Of a DNA stretch of 64,000 nucleotides, positions 22,101 through 25,100 are shown piece by piece. Position numbers and translations under genes: made by a program. The DNA is taken from positions 271,932,001 to 271,996,000 of the forward strand of contig OZ024740.1 in the NCBI GenBank assembly GCA_964016885.1, given 5' to 3'. This DNA is from Eledone cirrhosa. Lineage: Eukaryota. Each line of letters starts with the position of its first letter. The stretch's first letter is position 1. Below the pieces are notes generated by a model. That model made no database searches and was not told the origin of the DNA. It saw only the letters and a program-made list of their open reading frames with translations.

Positions 22101-25100
22101 CAACCCCACCAGGATACTCTTGCTGAAGGCCTGAAGCTTGTCTCCTTCAACAACAGTGCAACACGTCCGCTGTAATTTACGAAGTTGCAGTCACTTCTAA
22201 CCGACCAAATCAACAAGAGGTCAAATCCAATGTAGGTATGGCAGAGGGCCGGTTTAAAGAATGCTTCATGAATCATCTATCGACATTTAGACACCCGGAC
22301 AAACGATCGTCCACAAAGCTTGCAAGCCACACATGGTCTGTCAAGGACGCAGGCGTGGATTACTCAATCTAATGGAAAGTTATAATCAAGTCTAAGCCAT
22401 ACAGAAATGGGAATCCATCTTGTGGACTGTGCATTGAAGAAAGAATCAATATCCCGAGGAGTTGGCGTAATAGCGCTTGTCTAAACACAAGGTCCGAGTT
22501 CTACTCACGTTGTCCCCACGTTTCGAAACATCTATTACGTAATTTTAAAGCCCCAGACTGACTATCGGACGTAACACCACAAGACCGAATAGCATGAATA
22601 ATTTATTGTATTCTGATCTTTCACAGCCACCTCCCTGTCATCAATCCAACGTGAGTTGATCCCCTTTGAGAAGAACTTCTTCTGCGCATGTCTATTCGTG
22701 TAATCGTTTTCTTTTTTCATATCATCTCATTTAAACCGAGCTGATGATCCGTCTGAGGTGAAACAAATTGTTCTCGGAAATGGTGAATTAACTGTTGTGG
22801 AACTACTTCTACCAAACTCGTCCCATGGACTGAGTGGTCTACTACTGCCGATATAACCCACCAGTGTTCTACCAATATATATATATATATATATATATAT
22901 ATGTGTGTGTGTGTGTGTGTGTGTGTGTGTGTGTGTGTACTTACCACAAATATAAACAAATAAAAACCATTCTACGCAAAACTGGTTCTTTAATGATATA
23001 CAGCATGCCGGGAAGTTGGCAGCGTGTTCTCGCAGACATCACTGTTTCTGTCAGATGTTCACCTCCTCGTGGAATTTTACCTTGCTGCTGCTGCTGTTGA
23101 TGTTTAAATACGGAAGTGATCACTGGCAGCGATTCATTGATTCCAATACTTCCCGAGAGCTCGGTTTTCATTCCTGGTATACGACCATTACATTTAACGG
23201 AGTTGTTATTGTTATTTAAATTATAAATATTGCGATCAACTTGTAATCCTTCCGGCCACACTTTGTAAGTATTTAGATAGACTTCTTGCTCGTTACTGGT
23301 ATCGATATATCGATCAGTATCATAGACAGTGTTAGCCAATGTTTTATGAATGCAAGGCATGCTTTCAACACGTATACCTAGGTCTTCATTCTGAATATGC
23401 ACACGAGGAGAGATTATTGCACTATATGCTCTTCTCAAAAAATGTTTATTTTTGGTTTCTGTTGTTTGGAATGTCTTTAAGTCGGCATTTTCTACTAATT
23501 GCAAATATATTTCATCGGAGTTTACATTTGTATTTGCTATGTTTGGCGTGCCCTTAGTTTGTTTTAATGGGGTCTTTTCTATGTCTGTATCAACATTCAG
23601 TTTTTTTATATGTTGGAAAGGAGTGTCTTTGACTTTGATGTCGACATTTGTGTCTTGTAACTGTTGCTGTAAGGAAGAAGGAGTTGTATTAACAACGGTA
23701 TGTATCTTTTCTGTCTGTTGGACACCATTGTTGTCGATGTTAGCGCTTACATAAACTGTCTGCTGACAAGAAGTATTTTCAGTGTCTAATATAGTATTTA
23801 CTGTCCGTTGGAAGTCTTTCTGCAAAGGTGTTTCAACATCTACAATCGACTGTTCAGGACAAACTTTAGAAATGTCTGCATTTTTGACTTCACAGTAATT
23901 AATTTTTGTTGTAACGAGATTTCTGTCTCCCATTTCTGTGGAACCAATTTTCGAAGAGTCTAAATTTATTTGTTTTGCATGCCGACAATAAGTATTTGTG
24001 AAACAGGCATCTTTGTCCTGAATAGTTTGGGAACGATTGTTCGAAAATATTTCAGAAGTATTGACATTTTTAGTATCATCTGTGATTTGAGAAGATATTT
24101 CCCCTCTATCAATACTGTCTATGGGTTGCATGGAGTTCAATTTTGTAGTGTCTACAATATTATCGGCTATTTGAGACGATGTATCAGATTTGGAAGCTTC
24201 TGACCCTAACGGATCAAAATGGCGATACAGGTATGCTACTTGGTTATAGTCAACATCGTTCTTTTTTGCAGCTTTCCTAATGAGATGTTTTGCTTCTGTC
24301 CATCTGTCTTTGGCAATTAACCAACGGATAGACTCATCTATAGACCTAAAACAGTGAGAGGCAAGGGATTATTCTGCAAAAGAATCAAACCAAAGAAGTA
24401 GTTTCAAAGTGAAGTAACAAAAAATAATTGTTTCTACTTTTGGCACAAGGCCAGCAATTACCCAGTACATTACTGGTACTTTATTTTATCGACCCCGTAA
24501 GGATGAAAGGCAAAGTTAACCTCGGCGGGATTTGAACTCAGTTCGTAAAGGGACGTAACTGTGCTGCAAAGCATGGCGTCTGACCCTCTACCGATACTGC
24601 CAATCCACCACCATCAAAAAATAATTGTTTCTACTTTAGGCACAAGGCCAGCAATTACCCCAGTGCATTACTGGTACTTTATTTTATCGATCCCGTAAGG
24701 ATGAAAGGCAAAGTCAACCTCGGCGGGATGTCGTTGAAATTAGGAAGAAAGAAATGTGATAAGTAATAAAACAGAGAGAGAGAGAGAGAGAGAGAGAGAG
24801 AGAGAGAGAGAGAGAGAGAGAGAGAGAGAGAGAGAGAGAGAGAGAGAGAGAGAGAGAGAGAGAGAGAGAGAGAGAGAGAGAGAGAGAGAGAGAGAGAGAA
24901 ATAGATAGATATAAATAAGTATAAAGGATGATGTACTCAAGCGCATAGATGCTATAAAATAGACCCTTAAAAGACGGCCTTCCTCACAGCGGCCAGTGAC
25001 AACTTCTTTTCCCGTCTTTTAAGGGTCTTCACTCTGTTATAAGCTATTTTATAGCACCTATGCGCTTGAGCACGTCATCCTTTACACACACACACACACA

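Follow-up and report, generated by a model that had tools for sequence, protein, structure and literature searches.

What kind of protein is encoded by an SLC22-type transporter gene of the octopod Eledone cirrhosa in which a single giant exon separates the two halves of the membrane core, and is the long cytoplasmic loop specified by this exon a genuine part of a working transporter? The gene lies on the minus strand of the 64,000-nucleotide stretch of DNA that we analysed (hereafter the window), where it spans ~38.7 kb and consists of ten GT-AG exons that join in frame into a protein of 949 aa with a single terminal stop. This model bears out a previous sequence-only reading that had named no strand and had claimed a stop-free exon of 1401 nt in phase 2-2 and a 949-aa protein. 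DESIRWL is found at residue 269 and a 12-residue segment of TM7 at residue 722, and the coding exons are arranged as follows:

42468..42624, minus strand: exon 1, coding part, with the start codon and TM1, in agreement with the N-termini of orthologues
34484..34689, minus strand: exon 2, extracellular domain with C60, C86 and C104
30761..30991, minus strand: exon 3, with WDLVC, TM2-TM4 and the DKYGRK motif (MFS_1, 4.5e-10; Sugar_tr, 7.5e-9)
28213..28415, minus strand: exon 4, with an ELFPT motif and TM5-TM6
22945..24345, minus strand: exon 5, 1401 nt in phase 2-2, with the intracellular helices (DESIRW to RHFDP), the long linker and the start of TM7
11890..12024, minus strand: exon 6, with the remainder of TM7 including Y740 (Y358 of OCTN2), and TM8
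11683..11768, minus strand: exon 7, with an IGRK motif and TM9
8235..8355, minus strand: exon 8, with TM10 and ELFPT
4585..4657, minus strand: exon 9, with TM11 and R859 (R471 of OCTN2)
3896..4132, minus strand: exon 10, coding part, with TM12, the LPET motif, the C-terminal tail and the stop

Several repeats were seen around these exons. Intron 4 holds two partial copies of a very high-copy SINE-like element (window 24420-24730) with a summed contig depth in the millions, and a several-hundred-base stretch is present twice in intron 5 (window ~17735-18300 and 21126-21690). Reverse transcriptase fragments at 59091-60026 on the plus strand and 39646-40095 on the minus strand (RVT_1, E-values of 3.8e-12, 1.8e-4 and 8.1e-13) are likely decayed LINE elements. 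The frames at 15605-16351 (minus strand; no Pfam match) and ~22250-22560 (plus strand) resemble, judged by eye, endonuclease-like retroelement fragments.

Human OCTN2 (SLC22A5) and OAT1 (SLC22A6) are the best structural and sequence matches of the octopod protein, which shares with them the 12-TM MFS fold, the four-cysteine extracellular domain, the intracellular helices, the arginine in TM11 and the gate residues; every SLC22 feature that can be tested on sequence is present in the window protein. The fold is evident from an AlphaFold model of the Octopus sinensis orthologue, for which OAT1 and OCTN2 are the top Foldseek matches (E ~1e-18, TM-score by target 0.82-0.84), from the hydropathy of the window model and from Sugar_tr and MFS_1 matches above cut-off. 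C60, C86, C104 and C126 are invariant in a 40-sequence alignment, as expected of the two-disulfide extracellular domain between TM1 and TM2, and would probably form bonds comparable to C50-C113 and C81-C136 of OCTN2 (PMC12780140). The SLC22 motifs comprise DESIRW in the ESxR signature (the ESPXR region is named as a signature of the family in PMC4633038), the intracellular helices after TM6, two copies of ELFPT and LPET; OCTN2 has PESPR in place of DESIR, and the ESIRW variant is also found in OAT3. In HMMER alignments read with the residue roles given for OCTN2 (PMC12780140), the gate residues D165, E220, R282 and R459 are kept as D155, E210, R273 and R847, as are carboxylate-binding R471 (R859), Y358 (Y740) and Q207 (Q197), and the residues that differ are D519 (Q907), Y447 (W835) and Y211 (N201). 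The OCTN Na+ site with its PNGFxG motif is lacking, with G38/T42/M200 at the positions of S28/N32/N210 of OCTN2. In OCT1-3, an aspartate in TM11 has a functional role; it is absent from the window protein, which carries the OCTN/OAT-type arginine (R859) and aligns SRIGS to the CDIGG of OCT2. Given the TM11 arginine of OCTN2 and OAT1 in place of the aspartate of OCT2, together with the lost Na+ site, the substrate is probably a carboxylate-bearing organic anion or zwitterion, carnitine excepted, and its transport would do without a Na+ site of the OCTN2 type.

Exon 5 (24345-22945) has AG...GT ends, a GC content of 36.6% and no stop, and the stop-to-stop frame that covers it runs over 475 aa (22941-24368), compared to a median of 79 aa and a maximum of 197 aa for the longest frame in 2000 shuffled versions. 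A mis-assembled or transposon-derived open frame in a dead gene might be suspected at this repeat-rich locus, the more so as the gene models of Octopus bimaculoides and Octopus vulgaris are incomplete. This explanation is refuted, and we consider it extremely improbable, since the linker DNA has a single match in the 3.0-Gb genome (itself), orthologues retain the same loop, all splice sites are canonical, and a 1531-nt contig, one per run in each of three runs, spans exon 5 and extends into both introns. The three runs are of genomic type, come from one sample and are possibly the assembly's own source, and their contigs differ from the window over exon 5 at one position only (24106 C>G, equivalent to R346T); with a single contig covering the exon in each run, an assembly artefact at exon 5 is unlikely. 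No Pfam family was found on exon 5 and no usable match to the linker in the ESM Atlas, neither of which is a sign of novelty, and a DNA repeat search within exon 5 returned weak two-copy families only. Proper TM7-TM10 are missing from the O. bimaculoides models, and that of O. vulgaris is without part of the N-terminal half and the C-terminal end, in both cases probably due to annotation or assembly gaps.

Orthologues were found as 3 matches among 4623 candidates in a search of longer proteins (O. bimaculoides, O. sinensis and Argonauta hians), to which a search with the C-terminal half among proteins of 532-1694 aa added O. vulgaris and a 771-aa Logan protein on a 2689-nt contig. The five clusters comprise 10 proteins, and all 10 have the long loop. 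The likely orthologues O. sinensis LOC115210859 (XP_029635475.1), O. bimaculoides LOC106876873, O. vulgaris CAI9721257.1 and A. hians GAB1606797.1 are annotated in public as uncharacterised or hypothetical proteins. RefSeq gene models draw on RNA-seq. No paper was found under these accessions or locus names, and among the openly accessible papers listed in literature searches there was no description of the gene or of giant SLC22 loops. The frame of the 771-aa orthologue needs 2313 nt, compared to ~38.7 kb for the gene in the window, and its 2689-nt contig would most simply be a spliced transcript that keeps the long loop.

Measured from the glutamate of ESxRW to the tryptophan of TM7, the loop is 464 aa long in the window species, 483-625 aa in the three Octopus species and Argonauta, and 255 aa in the 771-aa orthologue. 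The membrane core of the window protein is identical to that of O. sinensis and of Argonauta at 367 of 383 positions each and to that of the 771-aa orthologue at 320 of 383. The variable linker within the loop is identical at 190 of 379 positions to O. sinensis (50%) and at 106 of 379 to Argonauta (28%), and the linkers of O. sinensis and O. bimaculoides share 90% identity. Its length is 396 aa in the window protein, 415 aa in O. sinensis, 557 aa in Argonauta and 187 aa in the 771-aa orthologue, whose linker aligns to that of the window no better than shuffles and has no motif in common with it. Despite 9 gaps in the protein alignment to O. sinensis and 16 to Argonauta the frame is intact in all models, and none of 2000 neutral simulations of the linker was stop-free at either 70% or 50% protein identity, which argues for a translated linker under selection to remain open. 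The stops or frameshifts in orthologues that the sequence-only reading had named as speaking against its claim are absent from these models, and its proposal of a lineage-specific SLC22 with a long, predicted-disordered and translated TM6-7 loop holds for the Octopus and Argonauta orthologues alike.

The same reading had considered that exon 5 could be an exitron, the interior of which (~1.2 kb) is sometimes spliced out to give a short, ordinary SLC22 isoform. An open frame would be expected for an exitron too, loose thresholds admit eight in-frame GT..AG pairs (303-675 nt), and pyrimidines occupy 13 of 14 positions at one internal acceptor (23667). Yet the candidate donors all match only 6 of 9 consensus positions, where the gene's own nine donors reach 7-9, the sole internal donor scoring 7 sits close to the 3' end of the exon, and no donor/acceptor pair could remove more than 675 nt, so that the insert is not bracketed by any in-frame GT-AG pair of normal strength; the score is a crude consensus match with which rare splicing is compatible. 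One candidate donor, TAT|GTAAGC, falls at a Y-V dipeptide where Argonauta has Y-I, and it is impossible there because an isoleucine codon cannot begin with GT. In addition, the loop is kept in all 10 orthologue proteins found, with no short form among the proteins of 532-1694 aa, and no intron is found inside the same exon in 18 of 19 paralogues. The exitron idea is therefore unsupported, and we regard it as highly unlikely.

How unusual is a loop of this size? The span of 464 aa in the window protein, roughly five times the usual length, compares to a median of 73 aa and a maximum of 140 aa among 113 relatives, of which some half are near-redundant metagenomic proteins (fused, truncated and duplicate orthologue rows excluded). 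In a broader survey of the best 150 of 12248 matches from a scan of 1.84 billion proteins (146 of 154 proteins measurable), 161 non-orthologue loops had a median of 98 aa, giving the octopod loop an excess of ~370-390 aa over the two medians. The caveat that equally long loops might be common elsewhere partly applies: among the best 150 of 12248 matches, 13 of these 161 loops exceed 150 aa and 3 exceed 200 aa, namely those of Owenia (375 aa), Physella (282 aa) and Babylonia (212 aa), each a single unverified prediction. With 464-625 aa the octopod loops are the longest measured among these matches, and other giant loops may exist since only the best 150 of 12248 were covered. Database matches of 904-1083 aa were rejected as long-loop proteins because they are tandem double transporters.

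In quick IQ-TREE and FastTree phylogenies, the octopod clade including the 771-aa protein has full support, its sister is a cephalopod paralogue with loops of 128-140 aa, and both are nested in a mostly molluscan group. The long loops of Owenia, Physella and Babylonia sit on separate branches of the FastTree phylogeny (126 rows), where long loops appear on scattered branches beside short-loop sisters. The octopod loops are thus, as far as these trees and alignments go, the tail of a recurring trend, an extreme case and not a new kind of protein. This trend is seen in a lophotrochozoan group of SLC22 proteins with ES[IL]RW (Octopus XP_029643749.2, a 603-aa paralogue of Argonauta, Pinctada, Elysia, Physella XP_059168761.1, Babylonia XP_076444342.1 and Owenia CAH1797859.1) that share the site of expansion, low-complexity hydrophilic linkers and variable loops with the octopod gene, though their long loops are shorter than the octopod ones. 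Vertebrate OAT-type proteins have loops of 77 aa, ~6 times shorter than the octopod loop, and the octopod proteins fall outside their group in trees that did not include OCTN2. The independent 375-aa loop predicted for CAH1797859.1 of the annelid Owenia fusiformis (residues 251-625) contains many basic-x-x-S/T motifs (RRGT, RLS, RKIS, KRKSS and RKSS), which makes it, compared to the octopod gene, the stronger candidate for kinase regulation of the loop.

Three genome searches matched the ESxRW helix at 33 or more other places, one of them weak with a stop inside, and none of these 33 has an open frame of more than 239 aa. The 19 paralogue loop exons that we examined, taken from 22 matches of one search, all start 10 nt ahead of the glutamate of ESxRW, and 18 of them end in phase 2 at TM7 with lengths of 225-402 nt (the 19th is interrupted). 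Exon 5 has the same start and the same phase-2 end, in line with the SLC22 exon layout, which makes it an old exon with a swollen middle and not a newly arisen one.

The window gene is single-copy, and many of its paralogues are found in tandem arrays. Such clusters lie in the same genome at C2:355.7-356.3 Mb, C3:343.6-344.2 Mb, C4:77.9-78.4 Mb, C4:237.7-238.2 Mb and C14:28.1-28.2 Mb (all G000), and some clustered paralogues are almost identical across the loop exon. At L013 (G000:C4:238083600-238084900), the loop exon of a paralogue enters repeat-like sequence and then meets a stop; this is probably a broken copy, and by eye the sequence resembles the high-copy element of intron 4. The same short frame of 69 aa was found at C4:237917335. 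A frame of 1191 aa at another SLC22 exon was rejected as a giant loop: L002 (G000:C6:24077500-24085500) contains an intronic minisatellite of more than 3 kb directly upstream of the exon that is open in all three frames of one strand and mimics a giant open frame.

All motifs named previously (VETPLQK, KDTPFQH, EKTPLKQ, RRAYS, Q6 and N5) are indeed found in exon 5. The main elements of the linker are:

23022..24209, minus strand: variable linker, 396 aa (residues 312-707), predicted disordered, single-copy DNA
23730..23765, minus strand: 12-residue island kept among octopods
23559..23837, minus strand: region of the TP motifs (23817-23837, 23610-23630 and 23559-23579), the TP not kept in orthologues
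23421..23435, minus strand: RRAYS, which we take to be a candidate basophilic-kinase site; KRTLS in Octopus, KRTFS in Argonauta
23349..23372, minus strand: second candidate basic-x-x-S site, with a counterpart in Octopus and KSESL in Argonauta
23184..23246, minus strand: islands LQVDRNIY and VKCNG, kept among octopods, with a species-specific polyN run between them
23082..23099, minus strand: Q6 run, absent from orthologues

The loop is rich in T/N/I/S/Q/D, and the composition of the linker is alike in orthologues (S+T 16-21%, charged 23-30%, aromatic <5%). It is predicted to be a disordered cytoplasmic segment. Residues 44-452 of the window's exon 5 have a pLDDT below 50 with folding at the ends only (6-sequence alignment), and the AlphaFold model of the O. 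sinensis orthologue has 387 residues with a pLDDT above 90 and values below 50 over most of 319-727, based on a 40-sequence alignment with the long linker in only 3 of 40 rows; shallow alignments of this kind can also depress pLDDT. The charge-hydropathy index is borderline for the window linker (-0.005) and lies between -0.045 and -0.17 for orthologues.

The octopod linkers align well above chance (196 compared to a shuffle maximum of 85), and 73 of 396 linker positions are identical in the window species, Octopus and Argonauta, concentrated in QQTxY, [KR]RxxS, ES[ML], LQVDRxIxN, KCNG and both linker ends. The RRAYS motif of the sequence-only reading thus has counterparts in orthologues, and its TP repeats, polyQ and polyN lose their standing as functional features in that none of the TP motifs, Q6 or N5 was found in orthologues by protein alignment. 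Nor do the three TP motifs qualify as an internal repeat, since the window linker has no significant self-repeat (self-score 47; mean 36 and maximum 54 in 30 shuffles). The Argonauta linker contains a repeat with a 30-aa period (score 246, shuffle maximum 47), which shows tandem duplication as one route by which such linkers grow. Among sorting motifs, the dileucine type is absent from the linker and YxxPhi is not consistently conserved.

Taken together, the gene very probably encodes a working transporter with a disordered loop, be it regulatory or neutral, and we moderately favour the version in which the swollen linker has a regulatory role via kinase or docking sites. In this intact single-copy octopod SLC22, a naturally variable TM6-7 linker would have expanded to ~400 residues within an ancient exon. 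Organic anions or zwitterions are the likely substrates of the protein, and the linker is predicted to form a disordered tail in the cytoplasm, likely with a few sites for kinases or for docking. Activity or surface traffic may then be controlled through phosphorylation of the conserved basic-x-x-S sites, and most of the linker may be tolerated filler. This regulatory reading is weakened by the ease with which basic-x-x-S motifs arise by chance and by the modest number of positions identical three ways, and the candidate sites are not essential clade-wide given a 771-aa orthologue without any shared linker motif.

A transporter that works with its linker as an inert spacer, growing by slippage and duplication and merely kept in frame and soluble, would account for orthologue linkers that range from 187 to 557 aa, for the unrelated linker of the 771-aa orthologue, for the scattering of long loops on branches adjoining short-loop sisters, for the lack of Pfam or Atlas matches and for the species-specific nature of the motifs first pointed out. 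The islands common to the window species, Octopus and Argonauta and the above-chance alignment of their linkers speak against it, though common ancestry alone could explain this as well, and we consider such neutral growth rather unlikely.

A sensing role, in which the core detects a metabolite and the loop relays this to partners at little or no transport activity, would suit a gene that is single-copy with 96% core identity while many paralogues sit in tandem arrays, and the length of the loop leaves room for partners; a plant SUT2 with a long loop was reportedly once proposed as a sensor. Transceptors of the Snf3/Rgt2 type have a conserved signalling repeat or module in their long cytoplasmic part, and no such repeat is significant in the window linker or common to the orthologues. 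The gating charge network and the substrate arginine are intact, the loop has no conserved domain or repeat and shares no linker motif with the 771-aa orthologue, and plant TMTs with long loops do transport (PMC4160088). The previously suggested transceptor or scaffold function is thus not supported by a protein with most transport residues in place, and we find it distinctly unlikely. Similarly doubtful, though a shade less so, is the idea that this near-invariant cephalopod-specific SLC22, with the longest central loop of the survey, employs the loop as a kinase-controlled signalling platform and serves as a metabolite transceptor or a scaffolded transporter in a tissue peculiar to octopods, for example the nervous system.

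For the favoured regulatory reading, a precedent is found in the tonoplast monosaccharide transporters of plants (TMT/TST), members of the sugar-transporter family which have a hydrophilic TM6-7 loop of ~320 aa that is phosphorylated partly at species-specific sites, and the kinase VIK1 phosphorylates this loop and stimulates transport (PMC4160088). By analogy, the octopod protein most likely works like them, even though they differ in family, substrate and kingdom and no common loop sequence is expected. Extended loops are also described for type IIA SUTs (PMC3355574), and the TM6-7 loop of OATs has potential phosphorylation and ubiquitination sites and is implicated in kinase and ubiquitin control (PMC11597148). 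The SLC22 proteins CarT and BalaT of Drosophila have neural functions of their own in the recycling of histamine (PMC7139749) and may serve as a model for a conserved single-copy invertebrate SLC22; a BalaT-like protein of Artemia has 35% identity over the C-terminal half, a loop of 77 aa and no TM11 arginine.

The gene is apparently an extreme, undescribed variant of a well-known family that public annotations already list as an uncharacterised protein, and it would represent a new mechanism only if signalling were demonstrated. It shows that 400-550 additional residues can be accommodated between the two halves of the SLC22 fold, next to the intracellular gate, with a core that is still 96% identical. 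The natural series of loops of 255, 464, 483 and 625 aa on a near-constant transporter is well suited for tests of the role of the TM6-7 loop, and a cephalopod transporter as strongly conserved as this one merits a substrate screen.
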